From Savitreella phatthalungensis (taxonomy: Eukaryota), in the NCBI GenBank assembly GCA_051599415.1, contig AP039710.1:124001-188000 (forward strand): DNA of 64,000 nucleotides, in the 5' to 3' direction. The position numbers were made by a program, and so were the translations under genes. Under the pieces are notes generated by a model, which ran no database searches, had not been told where the DNA came from, and saw nothing but the letters and a program-made list of their open reading frames with translations. How positions within the stretch are numbered: the stretch's first letter is position 1; every line of letters starts with the position of its first letter. Below are positions 3,001 to 40,721 of this stretch, piece after piece.

Positions 3001-4034
3001 GCGTCGAACGGGTTCACTAGCTCGAGTGAGGGCGACGGTTGGACTGCGGATGCTGCGCTGTCGTAGTTCTTCAGGTCAGCGTACCCGCTGAAGAGGAAGG
3101 GTGCGAGTTCGGACGTCGGCGCAGGCGTTTGATCTGGGACTTGACCTGCGAGCGGGGGTGCAGAGGGATAGGGATGAGGTTGCTGGCCAGGACGGCTAGA
3201 GCCCTGGGCCGAGTCTGGCTTTGGAGCTGGTGTGGCTTCGCCTGACTTTGAGGATCTGTTGAAGATGGAGTGGTGTGGGAAGTGTAACCCTCCAAAAGAC
3301 GAGTTGCCTTGCGCTTGTGCCTGCCCTTGTCCTTGCTCCTGCACTCGGCCGAGGACTTGAGGTGAGGAGGATAGGTCTGCCTGTGGGATTCCGCCGATGT
3401 ACGTGTAGTTGGTGGTCCGCGGCTGTTGCTGTTGCTGTTGAGGTTGCTGTTGTCCGTGGTAAACGTACGTGGACGAGGTGGGTGGGGCGATGACAGGCGC
3501 TTGAGGGAGTAGCTTTGAGCTACCTGCTGCCGCTGGAACTCTGCTACCGTTGACTTCCCTGCCACCGATGCGCTTGCCTGCGCTCGATCCTGAGCCTGAT
3601 CCTGAACCTGATCCTGGTCCTGAGCCTGGTCCTGAGCCGGAGCCTGCTGCTGTACTGCCTCCAGCTGGGGCAGATGAGAAGGTCGAGGTGGATGTGCCTG
3701 CGCCTTGGCCGATGCCTCGGTTGAAGGCGCTGAATGGATCTGACATCTGAGTGCCTAATGGACTTGTCGGATTGCTCCCGTCAGAAGGGGCTCTGGTCGG
3801 GTAGTACATTCCGCCAGTGGGTGTCGCTGGACTGTCGGGATTGACTGGACCTGCTGCGATTCCGCCTGTAGATGGTGGAATTTGACGGATGTTGTTGAGC
3901 ATTATGCCGGACGGTGTTGTTCCACTAAGGTCTAGCTGTCCAGGAGGACCGCGTGAAGGTGTAGGACGATGCTCTTCATGTAGACCTGCTGGTAGGACAC
4001 CTTTTGCGCCTGCAGCTGTCGTCGAAGGAGACAT
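1..4034 (-). CDS. CYR1: Adenylate cyclase, 5' part (low-complexity N-terminus, G-alpha-binding motif, Ras-association domain, leucine-rich repeats); truncated at window edge
   Basis: Not in the ORF track because it runs off the edge. Manual translation from ATG at 4034 (MSPSTTAAGAKG...) appears open to position 1. It contains WAPPESWAV, an RA-like segment (QMRIYRGDWTFATVACGMNITTEGLMAVLARKFFL...GREDNSYLCRFIF) and many LRRs (e.g. LEDLDVSFNRITAIPNDIGRLTKL, LVKLVLDDNHLTYLPPQI). PP2C and cyclase domains would lie beyond the left edge. Confidence 0.92.
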   Translation of the reverse strand, partial: MSPSTTAAGAKGVLPAGLHEEHRPTPSRGPPGQLDLSGTTPSGIMLNNIRQIPPSTGGIAAGPVNPDSPATPTGGMYYPTRAPSDGSNPTSPLGTQMSDPFSAFNRGIGQGAGTSTSTFSSAPAGGSTAAGSGSGPGSGPGSGSGSGSGSSAGKRIGGREVNGSRVPAAAGSSKLLPQAPVIAPPTSSTYVYHGQQQPQQQQQQPRTTNYTYIGGIPQADLSSSPQVLGRVQEQGQGQAQAQGNSSFGGLHFPHHSIFNRSSKSGEATPAPKPDSAQGSSRPGQQPHPYPSAPPLAGQVPDQTPAPTSELAPFLFSGYADLKNYDSAASAVQPSPSLELVNPFDAMYTRQPHNPVPPGVQAEVFPQSQAFARTISHERRDANVAMPSPPVHPPATATATPAKSRGFFSSLIKRNKHSNDGTDSPNKKVVSPASATPSSTNPPMSSDDIPVPAMNFTSPFDPDPNANINASTSTSNRNNSGDDVLSQGNQAQFPGQTMGVPGIPLGPTTRNTIQQQQQQQLHKSSSASFLRLPGQIRRQGTVRGSIPLLRGKRSTTVSPGTSVAQGAYSLGPSSTRHNSSVTGISSTGGYTADQPDAQNRVSQELVLDMDFSQMQGIIDLSDTAAGLGGPMSAGTFDPASASGSGGERDSLPTSDFSFGNAADGQADTSLTDQQQLQQAAWAPPESWAVRKVEDPSRTADAILAETDPLEEVAGAHQEGVHQESSFPPNLSNAIMPATTSQQRRESTKSEVPMDAAALAARRGPIHQMRIYRGDWTFATVACGMNITTEGLMAVLARKFFLPSVANYQIAIQRNGLSRVLQSHERPFHIQKALLEQAGYKQEDKLEELGREDNSYLCRFIFSTISIGDYSDADVERENGGENTVVEHFDLSGRNLQTIPVVLYKHAGKIKSLDLSRNLSLDIPIDFIQSCPALESIVSTHNELSKVQTNIVAAKSLVFLDCSFNKMVELHDSMSDLANLVTLIIRNNRLSKLPASLAAMTSLRRINMSSNDFKVFPKELCELINLEDLDVSFNRITAIPNDIGRLTKLQRLLINNNRVIGSLPRAFRELQSLREIDVRFNQLTTLDILTELPLLESISAGHNAITVVEAAFPKAKLFMLDKCPVTKFSLLTTGEALTSLDLSMAKLPSFADEMFDQLKNLVKLVLDDNHLTYLPPQIAKLTKLQHLSCKNNQLTTLPDEIGQVGNLRFLDVHSNNIKSLPPSVWLIHGLVSLNASSNLLTAFPEPPVQQHSQSFSGQGQGPQQSSPGTPTTELPIDPDMMATSNLVASATTNAAAAARKGSVPSISSRSSNTMAQTLRYLYLGDNRLDDACFESVSLLQELRVLN

Positions 4035-4697
4035 CTGTGGATTTCTGTGTAGAGGGATGTGTATGTGCGTGTGCTGTTCAACGAGGGAGGTACAGATGAC
4101 GTTGTTACAGCCAGTTTATCATGTTTCTCCTGTTGGTGCGAGGTTGTTGTCTTGAGGGTTGTGCGAGTCTGGGGCAAGAGCGCGTGTCCTTGACAGTTTT
4201 GACAGTTATGACAGGTTTGACAGGTGAACGGCAGGCGCGCGTGTGTGCAAGGAGGCGCGTGGAGGTGGCGTGTTGTACAAGGAGCTGAAGAAGACAGGAA
4301 GAGAGGTGTACAGAGGGTAGTGTACGTGTAGGTCTCCCTGTGAGTCTCTGTGTGAGTCTCTGTGTGAGTCTCTAGGTGTGAATTTCTCTGTGTGTTTGGT
4401 TAGGCTGTAAAGAAGGTGCAAAGTACTTGGGGTGACGCGCGCGCTCTTCCACACAAGACGAAGATACGATTGCGCAAGTCTGAAGAGCCTTTGATCGACG
4501 TGTGTACGTGTGAGGATGTGTTGTAGGTGTGTGAGTGTGAGAGGCAGTCTCCAAATTAACGTTCATTCGTTTGTTGGTTAGATCGATTACACATGTGGAG
4601 AGAGAGAGACAGAGAGAGTGACAGAGAGAGCACAGAAGATGAACACAAAGGATCGATCGTAGAGTCTTTCAACGGGGTACTAGGCTGTGATTATAGA

Positions 4698-5444
4698 ATG
4701 ACCATGTCGTCGACGGAGCCTGACGTTGCTTCTACTCCTGCTGCTGCTACTGCTGGAGCTCTTCCTGCTCCTGCCACTGCTGATGCGGCTGCTTCAGCTG
4801 AGCTACCAAAGATCGACGAGATGCCATCAGATGCTATGGATGATCTGATACGGAGACGGATAGCTATTGACGAGCGTGCGCTTCGTCGTGTTGTCCAGCG
4901 TGTTGGCGCGGGCGTTGATGATCTAGCGACCCCTGGACTGGAAGAGGATCTGTCGCTGTTGCGATCGTCAATCCGCCGACTGGGATTTGCGTCGAGGGCG
5001 ACGTTGGAGGACAGACAGATGTACATGGATGAGAGGGAGACGATGGCTGTGGAGACTGCGGAAGTACGAGCGTCTGTAGAGAAGCTGTATACTGAGCTGG
5101 AAGCGGCGATCAAGGATCGGGATGATCGTCGAGCATTCGATGCTGCTGCAAAGACAATCAGGGACTCTGGTCTTCCGTCAAGGGAGGATGGGATGAAGGC
5201 TTGTAGTGGGTTGCGTGAGGAGGTGGATAAGCTGAAGGCGGACAAGGAGAACTTGTTGGGTGATTGGCGTCGGCGGAAGACGTTGTTTGAGGAGATCGAG
5301 AAGGCAGTTGGAAGGTACGCAGCTGCGATCGAGACACGAGCGCCAGGAGAGGAGCGGTCTACCAACGGTGACGTGGAGATGGTTGATGCCAATACTACCA
5401 CGACGATATCAACACAACCGTCAACAGACACACCTACGACGTGA
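4698..5444 (+). CDS. THOC7: THO complex subunit 7 / Mft1-like coiled-coil protein
   Basis: ORF 4593..5444; likely start ATG 4698 or 4704. The motif DDLIRRRIAIDERALRRVVQR followed by a long coiled coil (...FDAAAKTI...WRRRK) resembles fungal Thoc7/Mft1. Confidence 0.7.
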   Translation: MTMSSTEPDVASTPAAATAGALPAPATADAAASAELPKIDEMPSDAMDDLIRRRIAIDERALRRVVQRVGAGVDDLATPGLEEDLSLLRSSIRRLGFASRATLEDRQMYMDERETMAVETAEVRASVEKLYTELEAAIKDRDDRRAFDAAAKTIRDSGLPSREDGMKACSGLREEVDKLKADKENLLGDWRRRKTLFEEIEKAVGRYAAAIETRAPGEERSTNGDVEMVDANTTTTISTQPSTDTPTT

Positions 5445-35287: not shown

Positions 35288-35692
35288 ACGCGTGTGGCTC
35301 AAATTCGTGTACAAGCAGGACTAAGCCCTTGTCAACTTCGGCTCTCTGCTCGTGCTCCTAATCCTGCTCTCTCGTCCCAGTCGTTGCTCGGGTTTCCTGA
35401 AGACCACGCACTCTACAACACTGGATCTCAATTATGGACGTGGTCGTGCATTCAAACGAATCGTTGGAATTTTTCACCGAGAGAAAAAAGAAAGCGTAAA
35501 CAATGGAATTTCCTTCGTCAGTCGACAAGCACAGGAAGAACAACGATTGAGAGAAACATCAATCGCCGACAACCAACAACAGCTGACGAACAATTTTATG
35601 CACGCGTCAGACGCACAACACTGAGACCAACACAGACGCGATATTTGCTTCTACATCTCCCTAAAGACTCATTGAGTCGTCTCATCACGCGT
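35288..35692. promoter_or_regulatory. Cluster of MCB-like ACGCGT boxes upstream of SRC1/HEH1
   Basis: Perfect ACGCGT at 35288, 35602 and 35687 (plus ACGCGA at ~35636). Confidence 0.4.
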
Positions 35693-35729
35693 CAAGTCCA
35701 TCCGGGTAGCCTTACAAGGAGTCTTACAG

Positions 35730-38014
35730 ATGGACGATCCAGTATCGTCCGGAGCCTGGCTCAACAGGGACTTTGACTACCGCAAACTCACAGTCCTTGA
35801 GCTAAGAAGAATCTTCATCGAGCACGACATCGACTTCAAGTCGACTCAGAAAAAGGCAGAACTGGTCGGCGTGTACGAGGAGAGCGTTCTCCCTCGGCTG
35901 GAAGAGTTCAAGACAGGAGGCTCATCTACGGTGCCGGCGATCCCAGCGACCCCAGCAACAGCAAAGCGATCTGTCGGCAGACCTCGCAAAGACGGAGCGG
36001 CTAGTGTCAAGAGGAGGAAACAAGGACAGGACGCTGGTCTTGAAGCTGAGCAGCAGCAGGAGGAGCACAGTCAATCTCTTGAAGAGTCTTCGCCAGCACC
36101 GAAGCGTCCTCACGAGGCAGAAATCGAATCACCACGCAAGTCTCCGCGGAAATCCACTACAAAGGCTGATGGATCCACGAAGACTCCACGCAAAACAGCC
36201 AAGACGCCTCGGAAGAAAGCTGTCAAGGACGAACCTGAGCTTGCAGCGGAGGTTAAAGCTGATCCTGAGATCGAGGCCGATCCTGAGCAAGAACTTGAAG
36301 TGCCAAAAACAGTGCCTCGTACAGGGCGCAAGTCCAAGGTGGACGGAGCACAGGTAGCTTCAAAGTCGTCCCGCAAGCAGTCAGTTGCCGCCGCCGCCGC
36401 CGCCGCTGCTGCCGTTGCGCCTCCTTTAGCTCCTGCGCTTGTTCCTGCAAAAGAGACACCTCGGCAAAGTAAGAGCGAGGATAGTGCTGCTTTGCCAGCA
36501 GTCATCGCCAACAAGCTCAACCTGACTCCTCGAGCCGCAGACTTGTCAACCCCGGCTGACAGAAGGGCACGTTTCTCCACCGACAATGTCTTCCAGACCG
36601 GCACACCGCCGCCGATCAAGTCTGCAGTGCGCAGACACACAGCCGTGCCACGGTCAGCTGAGAGGCTTCTGCCCCCGAGCGCATCCGTAGACGACGAAGT
36701 TGCGGCCGACCAGCTCGTCGAGCTATCAGACGGCTCCGCCGCTTCCGCGTCATCTTCAACATCATCAATCTTGCGAACTGCACTGCTGACGCTTCTTGCT
36801 GCCGCAGCTGCTCTAGCATTAGCTCAGTACAGGGCAGAGAAAATCACAGCCGGCTACTGCTACATCGACAGCGTCCCACACCCGCAGCAACCCTTTAAGC
36901 CAGTCTGTCAGCCGTGCCCGGAGCACGGAACCTGTATGCCAGGGTTCAAACTTAGGTGCAATGATGGGTTCGTTCCGTCCGGCGGTTTCCCTCAGCTTGG
37001 ATTCTCGCCGAGCTGCGTGCCAGACACAGAGCGTCTGAGACGCGTCCGCCTGGTGGCCGACGAAGCGGTACGCGAGCTTCGAACTCAAAATGCACGCGCA
37101 GTGTGTACCGGAGATATCACGCCAGAGTTGACAGTGGCGGACTTACACGAGAGCTTGCTCGCTCGCAAATCGGCTGCTGTGTCGCGAGAGCAATTTGACG
37201 AGCTGTTCAATCACGCCATCGATGAGGTCCAGGCAAGAGACGAGATCGTGCAAGAGACAAACGGGTACGAGAATCCACCTCCACAGGCTATTGAGATCGA
37301 GGAGCAGGAGCAGCGTCCGTTGGAAACTTTTACACAGGTCGTGACAGTGACCCTTCAGGAGGACGCTATTGTCGTGACTTCTGCAGAAGAGACCCTTCCC
37401 ACGGAATTGCCGTTGCCCATTCCCGAGATCGTAGAAGCCTCTATCGAGAATTCCATCGCTGACCCTCTAGCACCCTCCGATCAACCTCACTCGCAGACGC
37501 AGGCATCGTCTGTAGAGCAAGACGATCCTTCACAGCAGTCCTGGAACGATATCGTGCGACAGCTGCTGCGGTTTTGATCCTTATCATCCTCGGCATTGTT
37601 GGCAAGCAACGACTAGATAGGAGAGCGCGCGACAGGAAGCGAGTCGTCGAACTCGTCGCTCGATGCTTCGATGAGCTCGTTCGACAGAAGCGTAGAGCTG
37701 TCACACTCTCTACCACCTCCAACGGCATCAGCGCCAACGCCTCGGGCGCAGTCGAGGCCACCCTAGGCGTCTCCCAGCTACGCGACGGCATCCTCAGGGA
37801 AGTTTTTTCATCACGCGAGAGAGAGCGACTGTGGCGCGACGTCGCAGCCGTCGTCGAAGCCAACAGCAACGTCAGGCCAACCCAAGCGGAAATCGAAGGA
37901 GAATGGCTACGTGCATGGGAGTGGATTGGGCATGTCCAGCCACTAACCCAAAGAGAGCAGCGTCTAGAACAAGGTCTTCAGGACGGCGACGACTTTGTCA
38001 GACCATTATACTAG
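35730..38014 (+). CDS. SRC1: Inner nuclear membrane LEM/HeH-MSC protein (Src1/Heh1/Man1 family); exons 35730..37264 and 37471..38014, 692 aa spliced
   Basis: N-terminal HeH domain (FDYRKLTVLELRRIFIEHDI...KKAELV), FSTDNVFQ motif, TM1, luminal Cys cluster (GYC...CQPCPEHGTC...C...CVPD). Donor GTACGA at 37265, branch GCTGAC 37458-37463 and acceptor TAG ending at 37470 join in frame to ETNG-TLRSTSLADAGIVC, followed by TM2 and the WEWIG C-terminal motif. Joined CDS is 2079 nt. Confidence 0.88.
37265..37470 (+). other. Spliceosomal intron (206 nt) of SRC1/HEH1
   Basis: GTACGA...GCTGACCCTCTAG; its removal fuses the two ORF-track frames and restores the family-typical LRSTSLA...C segment. Confidence 0.82.
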
Positions 38015-38261
38015 GCACTAAAAACGGGCTTCAGTCAGCGGTTTGCATCCTGTATCATGTATCTCTATTTTGTAACTCAGCGATGACAAACACGTCCGAA
38101 CGATATGTCCTTGTACAAAATGACGTACACTCTGAACACATACCCTGAAGACAAAATGTCGCGCTTTTCCCGAGACGCGTGATCACAGAGGGCAAGCGAG
38201 TGGACGCCGTGATGAAGCTGCTGTATTTGAACAGTCTCGCTAGCTAGTAGATTGAGCGCCC

Positions 38262-40721
38262 ATGTCTGCGCGCCATCTGCAGTCGACACACCGCAATGCT
38301 TCTCTTTCAGAGCACCGTCTAACAGACATCGATCGGGACGAGGAAGCCTATGCGGAGTCTGAGTTCGGCGGATTCAAAGACTACGATCGTCGGAAGCGCG
38401 TTAAGCTTCAGAACCAGGATGCGCTCCTCCGCCAGCAGTCTGGCACCACTGATATCTTCAAAGGCTGCGTCGTCCACATCAATGGTTACACAAAGCCTTC
38501 CAGAGTCGATCTCTGGCATATGCTGGTGGTTAATGGCGCCGTCTACAAGCAGTACCTCGAGGGCAAGACAGACGTCACCCACATCGTCGCCACGAACCTC
38601 ACACCAAAGAAGCAAGAAGACTTTGCAAAGTACCGTGTCGTCACCCCAGACTGGATCGTCCAAAGCATCGCACAAGGCAAATGCTTACCTTGGCAGCGCT
38701 ACAGATTGTACGGTGAGAAGACACTCGATTTCGAAGCTACGCCTGCCGTTGTACCAGTCAAGATCGATGACGAACACGTTCAGGCGCCCGCCAGATCTGA
38801 ACCGACGCCGCTTCACCCACCACAGGCACCACTGCAGCCACCACAGCAACAACAACAGCAACAAGAGACGCGCGACTACATTCGGACGGCGACCGATCCG
38901 GACTTCATTCAAGACTACTACCGCAAGTCGCGATTACACCATCTTTCCACCTGGAAGGCCAACCTTCGTACAAAGATCCACAATCTGACACCGCAGACCA
39001 ACAAGCAGACAGTCGTCATGCACATCGATTTCGACTGCTTCTTCTGTGCGGTCTCGTCCAAGGGCAAAGAACTACATGGCCGTCCATGCGCAGTCACCCA
39101 CGGTGGCAGTAATAGCGGCGAGATTGCGTCATGTAACTACGAAGCTCGCGCCTTTGGCGTCCGGAACGGGATGTGGATGAAGGAGGCCGTTCAACTTTGT
39201 CCCGAGATCGTATCGATCGGGTACGACTTTGATGCGTACGAGCGAGCGTCAGACGCCTTCTACGAGACCTTGCTTGCGCTCGGAGCCCAAGTAGAAGCAG
39301 TATCGATTGACGAGGCTCTCGTGAATCTCTCCGACCTCCTGCCGGATCCAGACGATCCAGCGTACTTCGATCGTGCGAACGCATTCGTCAGTCGCGTCCG
39401 TGCGGAAATCAGCGCGAAGACAGGCGTCCAGGTTTCCGCCGGCGTCGGAGCCAACGTGCTCCAAGCCAAGCTCGCCACACGCAAGGCCAAACCAGCAGGA
39501 CAGCGCTGTGTCAACGGCATCGACGGGCTCATGGAGGACGTCGAGGAAGTGCCGGGGATTGGCCATGCGACTGCTAAAAAGCTGCAGGAAGCGATAGGAA
39601 CCACGGCGGTCGATGCCCTACGTGATGTGCCCCTAGCGCGCCTCCAGGAGCTTCTCGGTCCTAAAAACGGGGAATCTCTTCAGCAGGCGCTACGAGGCAT
39701 TGACAGCACCCGCGTAGGCGACATCTCCCCTCGCAAGCTCGTTTCTATCGAGATCAACTGGGGCATTCGATTCACAACGGAGGAAGAAGTCAAGGACTAT
39801 ATGGGCCGCGTCGCCCTCGCACTCTCGCAGAAACTGAAGGATGTCGGATTCGTCTCGGCAGCACATGTCCTAGTGAAAGTGATGCGCCGGGCGAAAGACG
39901 CACCCATCGACCCGCCAAAATTCCTCGGCCACGGTAGGTGTGACAAGGTCAACAACGGGCGAGAAATCTCAGACACAGGTGATCCGGCAACCCTCCACAG
40001 GCACGCGTACGCGCTTCTCAAGGCGCTCGAGATCCCACCTGACGAGCTCAGAGGCATCGGCGTCGCCCTTACACGTCTCAAAGCAGTCACACCCACACGG
40101 CAATCCAGCTTCAAATTCCCGGAAGCACGACCTCAAAAGTCCATTCCGACCACCAGTGCAAACCTCGCCGCTTTCGCAACCACCACCAGCACACGCAAGC
40201 GCACCGCTGTCCAGCCCACCCTCGCCACAACGTCCCACTCAGCCACCACGACGCTTACAAATCTCGACATGTCTGTGCTGGCTGCGCTGCCGGACGATAT
40301 CCGGCGTGAGGTCCTGGCTGAAGAGCGGCTGATGCGTCAGATGGACAAGCGTAAGCGCGTGCAGACGCGACTGCTCACGAAAGCGGCCGTACGCGCGGAT
40401 GCAGCCAAGAAAGAGCGACTCCTGAACCGCAAGTACGCTGACCTACCCCCACCTCCAGACCACCTCACCCAGGGCGACCTCGCCACAGCCTCAACTCACG
40501 AAATCCTGGACTACCTCTCAAGCTGGATCGCCGCATCCACAGCAGAACATCAAGATCAACCACCAGACGAAGATGACTGGCGTGACTTCGAAAACTACCT
40601 ACACCTAATCGATGTCGACCGCGCCTGCGCCATCGTCGACTGGCTAGACAACAGAGCACGTATCGACGACGGCGTCGGGCACGGTTGGCGTGAGAGAATC
40701 CGTGCACTCAGAGACCTGTAG
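38262..40721 (+). CDS. REV1: DNA repair protein REV1 (BRCT + Y-family deoxycytidyl transferase)
   Basis: BRCT (IFKGCVVHINGYTKP...VVTPDWIVQSI), SRLHHLSTWK, MHIDFDCFF, ASCNYEARAFGVRNGM, VSIDE, a UBM-like LAALPDDIRREV and a C-terminal helical domain. Confidence 0.95.
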   Translation: MSARHLQSTHRNASLSEHRLTDIDRDEEAYAESEFGGFKDYDRRKRVKLQNQDALLRQQSGTTDIFKGCVVHINGYTKPSRVDLWHMLVVNGAVYKQYLEGKTDVTHIVATNLTPKKQEDFAKYRVVTPDWIVQSIAQGKCLPWQRYRLYGEKTLDFEATPAVVPVKIDDEHVQAPARSEPTPLHPPQAPLQPPQQQQQQQETRDYIRTATDPDFIQDYYRKSRLHHLSTWKANLRTKIHNLTPQTNKQTVVMHIDFDCFFCAVSSKGKELHGRPCAVTHGGSNSGEIASCNYEARAFGVRNGMWMKEAVQLCPEIVSIGYDFDAYERASDAFYETLLALGAQVEAVSIDEALVNLSDLLPDPDDPAYFDRANAFVSRVRAEISAKTGVQVSAGVGANVLQAKLATRKAKPAGQRCVNGIDGLMEDVEEVPGIGHATAKKLQEAIGTTAVDALRDVPLARLQELLGPKNGESLQQALRGIDSTRVGDISPRKLVSIEINWGIRFTTEEEVKDYMGRVALALSQKLKDVGFVSAAHVLVKVMRRAKDAPIDPPKFLGHGRCDKVNNGREISDTGDPATLHRHAYALLKALEIPPDELRGIGVALTRLKAVTPTRQSSFKFPEARPQKSIPTTSANLAAFATTTSTRKRTAVQPTLATTSHSATTTLTNLDMSVLAALPDDIRREVLAEERLMRQMDKRKRVQTRLLTKAAVRADAAKKERLLNRKYADLPPPPDHLTQGDLATASTHEILDYLSSWIAASTAEHQDQPPDEDDWRDFENYLHLIDVDRACAIVDWLDNRARIDDGVGHGWRERIRALRDL

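Follow-up and report, generated by a model that had tools for sequence, protein, structure and literature searches.

SRC1/HEH1 is the textbook example of functional alternative splicing in intron-poor yeasts, and its short form tunes the recruitment of ESCRT at the nuclear envelope. The present work concerns the counterpart of this gene in Savitreella phatthalungensis, a yeast whose genus is placed by a taxonomy look-up in the Taphrinales (Taphrinomycotina). The gene lies in a stretch of 64,000 nucleotides (nt), positions 124,001 to 188,000 of contig AP039710.1 (assembly GCA_051599415.1), which we refer to as the window and number from its first letter. We conclude that this SRC1/HEH1 gene probably makes two mRNAs from one intron, namely, a spliced one for the long form and an intron-retaining one for a short form with a conserved tail. 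The notion of a retention switch was put forward in a first-pass annotation of the window.

In Saccharomyces cerevisiae, competing 5' splice sites located 4 nt apart in SRC1/HEH1 give rise to Heh1-L and Heh1-S (PMC2528585; PMC7491326; PMC12830679; bioRxiv 10.1101/2020.06.25.171694; here and below, statements from the literature rest on the cited passages of these works). Heh1-S is devoid of the Chm7-binding MSC domain and associates with Heh1-L via the luminal domain, and its 49 unique C-terminal residues, which are conserved among yeasts, are required to damp the toxicity of Heh1-L/Chm7 (bioRxiv 10.1101/2020.06.25.171694). The alternative splicing of SRC1 is described as ancient, exon 2 of the orthologues being read in two frames in Saccharomycotina and in Aspergillus fumigatus, and the first ~150 nt of this exon are reported to be more conserved in the truncated frame (PMC7491326). 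In the Zygosaccharomyces/Torulaspora (ZT) clade, the SRC1/HEH2 gene has lost all intron stops, which adds an intron-retained third isoform (PMC7491326). Exon-like introns located inside coding exons have been named exitrons ('Enter exitrons', PMC4494720).

With regard to Savitreella, an ATG-initiated open reading frame (ORF) extends over 35730–37577 on the forward strand and translates into 615 residues, which represent the unspliced product (P0001). Joining exon 1 (35730–37264, forward strand, 511 codons plus 2 nt) with exon 2 (37471–38014, forward strand, codons of the main frame from 37472, stop at 38012–38014) yields a spliced product of 692 residues, identical letter for letter to the NCBI protein P0003 of S. 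phatthalungensis, named 'inner nuclear membrane protein enriched at telomere/subtelomere region' and sharing 100% identity over exon 1. Pfam assigns residues 19–48 to the HeH domain (PF12949, E-value 1.5e-9, 37.8 bits for a cutoff of 28.9), and the MSC domain (PF09402) is split, with profile positions 3–181 on exon 1 (9.7e-37) and 195–336 of 337 on exon 2 (1e-35). Since the two MSC halves sit on separate exons and are colinear only once spliced, the domain is whole in the spliced form only. In agreement with this, an alignment of 20 full-length homologues crosses the junction without interruption into the invariant STSLA..C..RR stretch, and the invariant Cys and the motif columns are present in the Savitreella protein. 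Kyte–Doolittle hydropathy, a crude method, places a first transmembrane segment (TM1) at residues 345–366 of both products (nt 36762–36827) and a second one (TM2) at about residues 538–561 of the spliced product only (nt ~37547–37618). Exon 1 encodes the HeH/LEM domain, TM1 and the luminal part of MSC, and exon 2 the luminal STSLA..C..RR motif, TM2 and the C-terminal part of MSC. Judged from this architecture, with a HeH domain, a split but colinear MSC domain and two transmembrane segments in the long form, the gene is of the SRC1/HEH1/LEM2 type and its long product has the features of LEM2/MAN1/Src1 inner nuclear membrane proteins. Pfam, hydropathy and the NCBI protein are thus in line with the identity proposed in the first-pass annotation and with its 692-residue product carrying TM2 and the MSC region. 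Its 615-residue product without TM2 is equally borne out by hydropathy.

One local feature of exon 1 should be mentioned here. A GCC/GCT run (36379–36420), which the read tool passed over as a repeat, encodes nine alanines in the disordered N-terminal region, and hydropathy falsely flags this Ala run (residues 219–238) as resembling a transmembrane segment. As for the homologues, a first protein search gathered 8000 candidates sharing words with the query, among which the window's own protein was the sole one past the E-value cutoff; we suspect that the candidate list had been filled with unrelated proteins through low-complexity words. An exhaustive HMMER search with the 615-residue product retrieved 336 proteins at E <= 1e-3, and the best 150 of these 336 were analysed.

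The intron (37265–37470, forward strand) is of phase 2, and re-reading of the sequence upheld what had been claimed of it: it is 206 nt long, which leaves a remainder of 2 on division by 3, starts with an unusual donor, GTACGA (37265–37270), and is free of stops in the exon-1 frame (codons from 37266), compared with 2 and 6 stops in the other two frames. A CTGAC at 37459–37463, with its A at 37462, resembles a branch site by consensus only and precedes the 3' splice site TAG (37468–37470), the joint 37264/37471 being present in a contig described below. Donor positions +2 to +4 read TAC in frame, where most orthologues have TAA, TAG or TGA, and read-through works because this codon specifies Tyr and is neither TAA nor TGA. 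Translation also confirmed that the exon-1 frame extends 107 nt into exon 2, up to a TGA at 37575–37577, so that 37471–37577 is open in two frames. We call the frame entered in this way, whose codons in exon 2 start at 37473, the +1 frame.

Openness of the intron is by itself not rare, as it was obtained in 6.5% of the shuffles that kept mononucleotide composition and in 7.9% of those that kept dinucleotide composition (n = 5000 each). The codon usage is more informative. The retained frame of the intron has a codon log-likelihood of 0.132 per codon, versus -0.25 and -0.54 for the two other intron frames, and falls within the range of 410 in-frame windows of long ORFs (0.164 ± 0.088; off-frames -0.20 and -0.23). 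When SRC1 was left out of the training set, the intron still scored 0.116. Of 1500 dinucleotide shuffles that were open, 8 attained this value, as did 1 of 84 non-coding windows. With a G+C content of 53%, near that of the exons, the intron looks like exon-like DNA with a coding-type codon usage in the retained frame. On these sequence grounds it qualifies as exitron-like, having coding potential within a coding sequence and leaving an open frame in both mRNAs. If retained, it would encode 68 acidic, Glu/Pro/Thr/Ile-rich residues, which are probably disordered according to the AlphaFold2 model, where their predicted local distance difference test score (pLDDT) is 39–57.

Evidence for the two RNA forms comes from four public runs mapped on 35400–38300, none of which is recorded as RNA. 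Run X1, the likely source of the assembly, covers the whole stretch as one contig at a depth of 34.1 and contains no joint. Run X2, from the same sample, behaves differently: its contigs cover 35648–37264 (depth 134.5) and 37470–38097 (depth 334), and these two blocks are connected in two ways. A spliced contig of 59 nt (depth 210.3) joins 37263/37264 to 37470/37471, leaving out precisely 206 nt that begin with GT and end with AG, and a retained contig (37235–37499, depth 117.8) keeps the intron. The two depths add up to 328, versus 334 for the exon-2 contig, and the retained arm amounts to ~36% of both, bearing in mind that contig depth provides one figure per contig and is a rough measure. 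From the joint and the positions where the contigs break we infer that X2 is RNA, and the spliced and retained forms that the first-pass annotation had proposed to look for would then both be seen. The same transcript-like contigs suggest an approximate mRNA extent of 35648–38097 (forward strand), although contigs cannot fix the true RNA ends.

The two remaining runs were less informative. Nothing in run X4 matched 35400–38300. Run X3, a phyllosphere metagenome, contains a 207-nt contig over 37475–37681 with seven differing letters, six of which were listed: none lies in 37475–37570, one at 37571 is synonymous in the +1 frame and changes V to I in the main frame, and five are at third positions downstream. 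This pattern agrees with an extra constraint on the dual-coded part, on numbers too small to count. The contig also points to a close relative or strain of Savitreella living on leaves elsewhere.

The dual-coded part of exon 2 (37473–37577, forward strand) comprises 34 codons of the +1 frame and the TGA, and would be used by the unspliced mRNA only. With the 68 intron residues it completes a 104-residue tail with a net charge of -17. Within the tail, the helical hydrophobic moment peaks over the last 11 residues (0.90), in line with the amphipathic-looking end noticed earlier, and AlphaFold2 predicts, with moderate confidence, a helix at residues 600–614 (pLDDT 72–76) beside a confident luminal domain, docking not being addressed by the model. 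The first-pass annotation had described a sizeable tail of protein-like composition. The real-ORF-like codon usage of the intron supports this part of the description, which missed, however, that the last ~20 residues are conserved across Ascomycota.

This conservation first became apparent among the homologues. For the 149 non-window proteins among the best 150 of 336, 58 have exon-2 homology, 73 are ORFs ending within 14 residues of the exon-1 boundary and nine others carry tails of 15–90 residues without exon-2 homology, five of these nine ending in a motif similar to ..DDPS..RW..I..L.., and the last nine fit none of these groups. Many of the 73 boundary-ending proteins finish in '..D-G-stop', as expected when a phase-2 intron starts with GTAA or GTGA, and the intron thus occupies a conserved position just before the STSLA..TM2 region. 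The five proteins with the motif include a Diplodia seriata 'SRC1' and a 545-residue product of Podosphaera aphanis that shares its locus tag with a 691-residue product. BLAST of the tail against the 150 listed matches gave only weak similarities (E 1–6), convincing only through their C-terminal position.

At the nucleotide level, 80 orthologous loci were extracted from metagenome contigs, and small hidden Markov models (HMMs) served to locate block A, at the exon-1 end, and block B, at the exon-2 start. From these 80 loci and the window, 81 sequences in all, we dropped eight without block B, two with block B below 30 bits and 13 duplicates, which left 57 distinct loci and the window. In each of the 57 loci, the open stretch of the +1 frame begins upstream of exon 2, and its stop lies at one of only five offsets from the block-B anchor, namely, 103 (20 loci), 106 (2), 109 (30), 112 (2) and 133 (3). 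The Savitreella stop, at offset 112, falls within the 103–112 interval occupied by 54 of the 57. For the +2 frame, the stop positions are scattered over 26 offsets between 80 (19 of 57 loci) and 875, and this frame is not a clean negative control. Aligned by coordinate and without gaps, the +1 peptides share a common ..S[DE]DP...[RL][WL]..I.S.L.. pattern. A position-specific scoring matrix (PSSM) derived from the +1 peptides of the other loci (53 unique sequences) found its best hit, out of 127,882 six-frame windows of the Savitreella stretch, at 37509, with a score of 10.64 versus 6.55 for the next one (mean -26.3, standard deviation 6.3). A profile of the last 30 +1-frame residues made with MAFFT and HMMER and compared with the six-frame pieces of the window did not list the SRC1 ORF, its best match (E 0.0084) being an unrelated piece; MAFFT aligned these short, Ser/Pro-rich tails poorly, and coordinate alignment with the PSSM was therefore used in place of the tail HMM.

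Synonymous recoding of the main frame with the codon usage of the window addresses how much of this signal belongs to the second frame. The observed score of 11.08 was reached by 14 of 20,000 recodings (null -10.96 ± 6.51). Among the same recodings, 5,619 (28%) stop at the same place and 6,867 are without a stop, so that openness of the +1 frame alone is not significant. In pairs of sequences with less than 60% amino-acid identity (1442 of 1596 pairs from 57 sequences including the window, one short locus being dropped), the fraction of identical codons given the same amino acid is 0.51 for codons 5–37 and 0.56 for codons 17–37, compared with 0.33 and 0.34 downstream; the pairs are not independent and the comparison is descriptive. 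Taken from the sequences, the last ~20 residues are not lineage-specific but appear to represent the tail that the truncated isoform has conserved throughout Ascomycota, and the truncated form would read exon 2 in a second frame that encodes a conserved peptide, ..DDPS..W..I..L..F (37509–37574, forward strand), which PSSM, recoding, hydrophobic moment and AlphaFold2 together delineate as a predicted amphipathic helix. The conserved +1 tail agrees with the two-frame exon 2 described in PMC7491326.

How other fungi enter this frame is a different matter. A stop precedes exon 2 in 51 of the 58 distinct sequences, and in 48 of these 51 it is made up of donor positions +2 to +4, the donors concerned being GTAAGT (36), GTAAGC (6), GTAGGT (3), GTGAGT (2) and GTAAGA (1). 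Three others (L001, L009 and L014) continue straight in the main frame and look like spliced full-length transcripts, L001 being without 113 nt that are found in L054. Exon 1 reads into the +1 tail in four, i.e., the window, L076, L042 and L053. Among these, L042 is the spliced form of the genomic locus L056: excision of a 68-nt GTAAGT..CAG intron brings exon 1 in line with the +1 frame, and as read from the alignment the full-length frame of L056 would need an acceptor ~20 nt further on, i.e., an alternative 3' splice site, a mode of splicing already described for A. fumigatus (PMC7491326). In L076, the donor is GTACGT and the phase-2 intron (3558–3637, 80 nt) is open, its length being likewise 2 modulo 3, with read-through into the conserved tail. 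The first-pass annotation had reasoned that orthologous introns full of in-frame stops would speak against a coding role for the retained intron. Such stops do occur elsewhere, in 48 of 51 cases in the donor itself, but they leave the idea standing, because at least one fungus of this kind (L056/L042) demonstrably gains that tail through the use of an alternative 3' splice site.

Some of these metagenome contigs are spliced, transcript-like copies of SRC1 orthologues. One species is represented by a genomic contig and by one spliced into the truncated frame (L056/L042), another by a genomic contig and by one spliced into the full-length frame (L054/L001), and L053 (truncated frame), L009 and L014 (full-length frame) also belong here. 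In public protein annotations, D. seriata (P0012, P0153–P0157) has entries of 303, 534/535, 578 and 853 residues, and P. aphanis (P0122/P0159) entries of 545 and 691 residues. Such inconsistent annotations probably reflect an unrecognised two-isoform structure.

In Savitreella, a search for other routes into the +1 frame was negative. Paired with the donor at 37265, none of the AGs in 37300–37577 would yield an intron whose length is a multiple of 3, and the only in-frame GT or GC donors for the acceptor at 37470 are GCTTGC, GCAAAT and GTCCGT, none of them usable. Within 37200–37520, no nested GT[AG]NG..YAG pair was found that has a CTRAY branch and spans a multiple of 3 nt, and the window offers no competing 5' or 3' splice sites a few nt apart. 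With no usable alternative splice site, retention is the only visible route into the conserved frame. Retention as the origin of the short form, as first proposed, is hence supported by the two X2 contigs, by the coding-type codon usage of the intron and by the lack of another splice route. Retention appears to replace the choice between splice sites here, with a donor that reads Tyr, an open intron of 2 modulo 3 and no alternative site.

When set beside the described systems, the Savitreella gene resembles S. cerevisiae SRC1/HEH1 in having one intron just before TM2, a long form with TM2 and MSC, and a short form with one transmembrane segment and a shifted-frame end encoded by exon 2. The frame shift is the same modulo 3, being +5 or -4 at the donor in S. 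cerevisiae and +206 in the window, all equal to 2 modulo 3. Unlike S. cerevisiae, which uses a donor 4 nt away, Savitreella keeps the whole intron, adding 68 residues. A. fumigatus and other Pezizomycotina share with it a phase-2 intron at the same position, the same +1 tail motif and the same stop position, but retention would end their protein at the boundary, owing to the in-frame stop within the donor, which is GTAAGT in most of them. L056/L042 gains the tail via an acceptor ~20 nt from the full-length one, whereas no such acceptor exists in the window. In the ZT clade, as in Savitreella, the same intron has been exonised by stop loss and the retained mRNA encodes a protein; there, retention adds a third protein to the two products of alternative 5' sites, whereas here it would be the sole route to the truncated isoform. 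As the window belongs to a different subphylum, exonisation must have arisen independently of the ZT clade. With exitrons, the gene has in common an intron with coding potential flanked by coding sequence, and spliced and retained mRNAs that would both be protein-coding. It differs from them in that the spliced product is the canonical, conserved full-length one and that splicing shifts the downstream frame, 206 nt not being divisible by 3. A parallel case is L076, a Pezizomycotina-like metagenome contig with a GTACGT donor, an open phase-2 intron of 2 modulo 3 and read-through into the tail; its intron is short (80 nt), however, which makes chance openness likely, and it is known from DNA alone.

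The mechanism that we propose runs as follows. Splicing of the 206-nt intron would lead to the 692-residue long form, with the HeH/LEM domain, TM1, the luminal domain, TM2 and a nucleoplasmic MSC domain. The weak donor GTACGA, devoid of +4A and +6U, would let roughly a third of the transcripts escape splicing (in Schizosaccharomyces pombe, U6 N6-methyladenosine favours sites with +4A; PMC12830679). A ribosome on the retained mRNA would read the 68 intron residues, enter exon 2 in the +1 frame and end at the TGA at 37575–37577. The resulting short form of 615 residues would have its HeH domain in the nucleoplasm, one transmembrane segment, the luminal domain, an acidic linker and no MSC domain, and its luminal C-terminus would carry the amphipathic helix. 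By analogy with S. cerevisiae, it may act as the short form does there and modulate ESCRT recruitment at the nuclear envelope.

Several observations weigh against this proposal. X2 carries the label 'DNA?', which is a guess, and its alternative contigs reach 29–30 letters past each junction, under the 31-letter bridging rule, yet typical of a k = 31 graph; the roughness of contig depth as a measure has already been pointed out. One alternative is that the retained arm is not RNA at all and stems from genomic DNA in X2, or from a DNA run with a cDNA-like copy. Although the label and the absence of any run recorded as RNA speak for it, we consider it very improbable, as X2 contains an exact GT..AG deletion matching the annotated splice, its contigs break at the gene ends, and its depth is 2.1 and 0.37 in the two upstream bins versus 118–334 within the gene. 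DNA carry-over at the upstream level cannot give a depth of 118, and X1 is flat at 34.1 with no joint. Even less probable, in our opinion, is that the short isoform is made through an alternative splice site or a nested in-frame intron missed by the contigs, full retention being a by-product. Contigs do drop rare variants, and other fungi generally rely on alternative 3' or 5' sites (PMC7491326; L056/L042), but the region scanned offers no suitable acceptor, donor or nested intron.

A more serious alternative, still unlikely in our view, is leaky splicing of an ordinary intron with a weak donor, the retained RNA being precursor or noise, degraded or untranslated, and its open frame a coincidence. 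The retained reads could indeed be nuclear pre-mRNA of a slowly spliced weak intron, and the stop at 37577 leaves a 3' untranslated region of ~520 nt, long enough that the retained mRNA could be a target of nonsense-mediated decay. Translation of the short mRNA is something that we infer. Openness of the intron alone is not rare in shuffles, and GTACGA departs from the GTAAGT found in 36 of the 51 orthologous loci whose exon 2 is preceded by a stop. The nearest relatives found by phmmer, P0004, P0005, P0007 and P0016 (37–45% identity) and P0006 (34%), end at the exon-1 boundary and hence do not share the open intron; BLAST against the best 150 of the 336 homologues revealed no counterpart of the 68 residues encoded by the intron, and part of the +1-frame similarity follows from main-frame conservation. 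Coincidence would nevertheless have to extend to an ORF-like codon usage reached by so few open shuffles, to a frame leading exactly into the conserved tail and the conserved stop, and to synonymous sites of exon 2 that fit the +1 profile better than nearly all recodings. Besides, the retained arm makes up about 36% of the two arms and no other route leads to the conserved tail. Production of the two mRNAs from one intron, with a retained short form, therefore remains the reading that we favour. A further-reaching version, which we hold tentatively and rate at slightly less than even, sees the intron as a translated and selected exitron. A change at donor position +4 (from a GTAAGT-type site to GTAC..) would have both removed the stop and weakened the site, turning an ancestral splice-site switch into a retention switch, independently in Savitreella and in at least one member of Pezizomycotina (L076), and the tail would date to the root of Ascomycota, being present in all three subphyla.

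In other parts of the window, most genes appear uninterrupted. A scan of 26 ORFs with Pfam showed uninterrupted domains in most of those with a family match, e.g., Cullin 1–620 of 620. A crude splice-motif scan gave one other clean short candidate, a possible 67-nt intron at 4388–4454 (reverse strand, GTGTGG...CCTAAC...CAG) between ORF pieces in 3935–4668 (reverse strand), which form the 5' part of an RA/LRR gene running off the left end of the window; we take this gene to be adenylate-cyclase-like. Seven ambiguous candidates were located at two ORF-piece junctions (10.5–10.9 kb and 12.9–14.2 kb, reverse strand), and all of these remain candidates only. The initial statement that the SRC1 intron is the only one among ~22 genes may thus be slightly too strong, given the candidate at 4388–4454. 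The gene at 38262–40721 (forward strand) and its neighbours are ordinary, mostly uninterrupted ORFs, including a polymerase with BRCT, IMS and UBM domains, presumably REV1-like. Further neighbours code for an acyl-CoA oxidase, a cullin, a UBR1-type E3, UTP20, a TRP-like channel, a scramblase, an MT-A70 methyltransferase and a WDR5-like protein. A gene for a THOC7/Mft1-type THO subunit (4593–5441, forward strand) lies 30 kb from SRC1. Genetic interactions link SRC1 to THO/TREX in S. cerevisiae (PMC2528585), but the closeness of the two genes here is probably coincidental.

With regard to novelty, the existence of two isoforms, the antiquity of this system and the double reading of exon 2 are already known (PMC2528585; PMC7491326). 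What is new here is retention as the sole route to the truncated isoform, the long codon-adapted intron and the Taphrinomycotina lineage, a group without mention in the SRC1 section of PMC7491326. In the portions of the papers returned by a literature search, nothing on SRC1 in Savitreella or on a retention-based Src1-S was found, and those on Savitreella appear to be taxonomic.

Automatic annotation gives only the long form in Savitreella and inconsistent models in other fungi. The gene also provides a test system in which the isoform ratio hangs on one weak splice site and not on two close competing sites. The occurrence of the same tail in a Taphrinomycotina yeast and at dozens of Pezizomycotina loci, by different RNA routes, argues that selection preserves the tail peptide itself. 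If the tail indeed dates to the root of Ascomycota, its +1 frame would be, for a nuclear gene, one of the most ancient known cases of overlapping reading frames.

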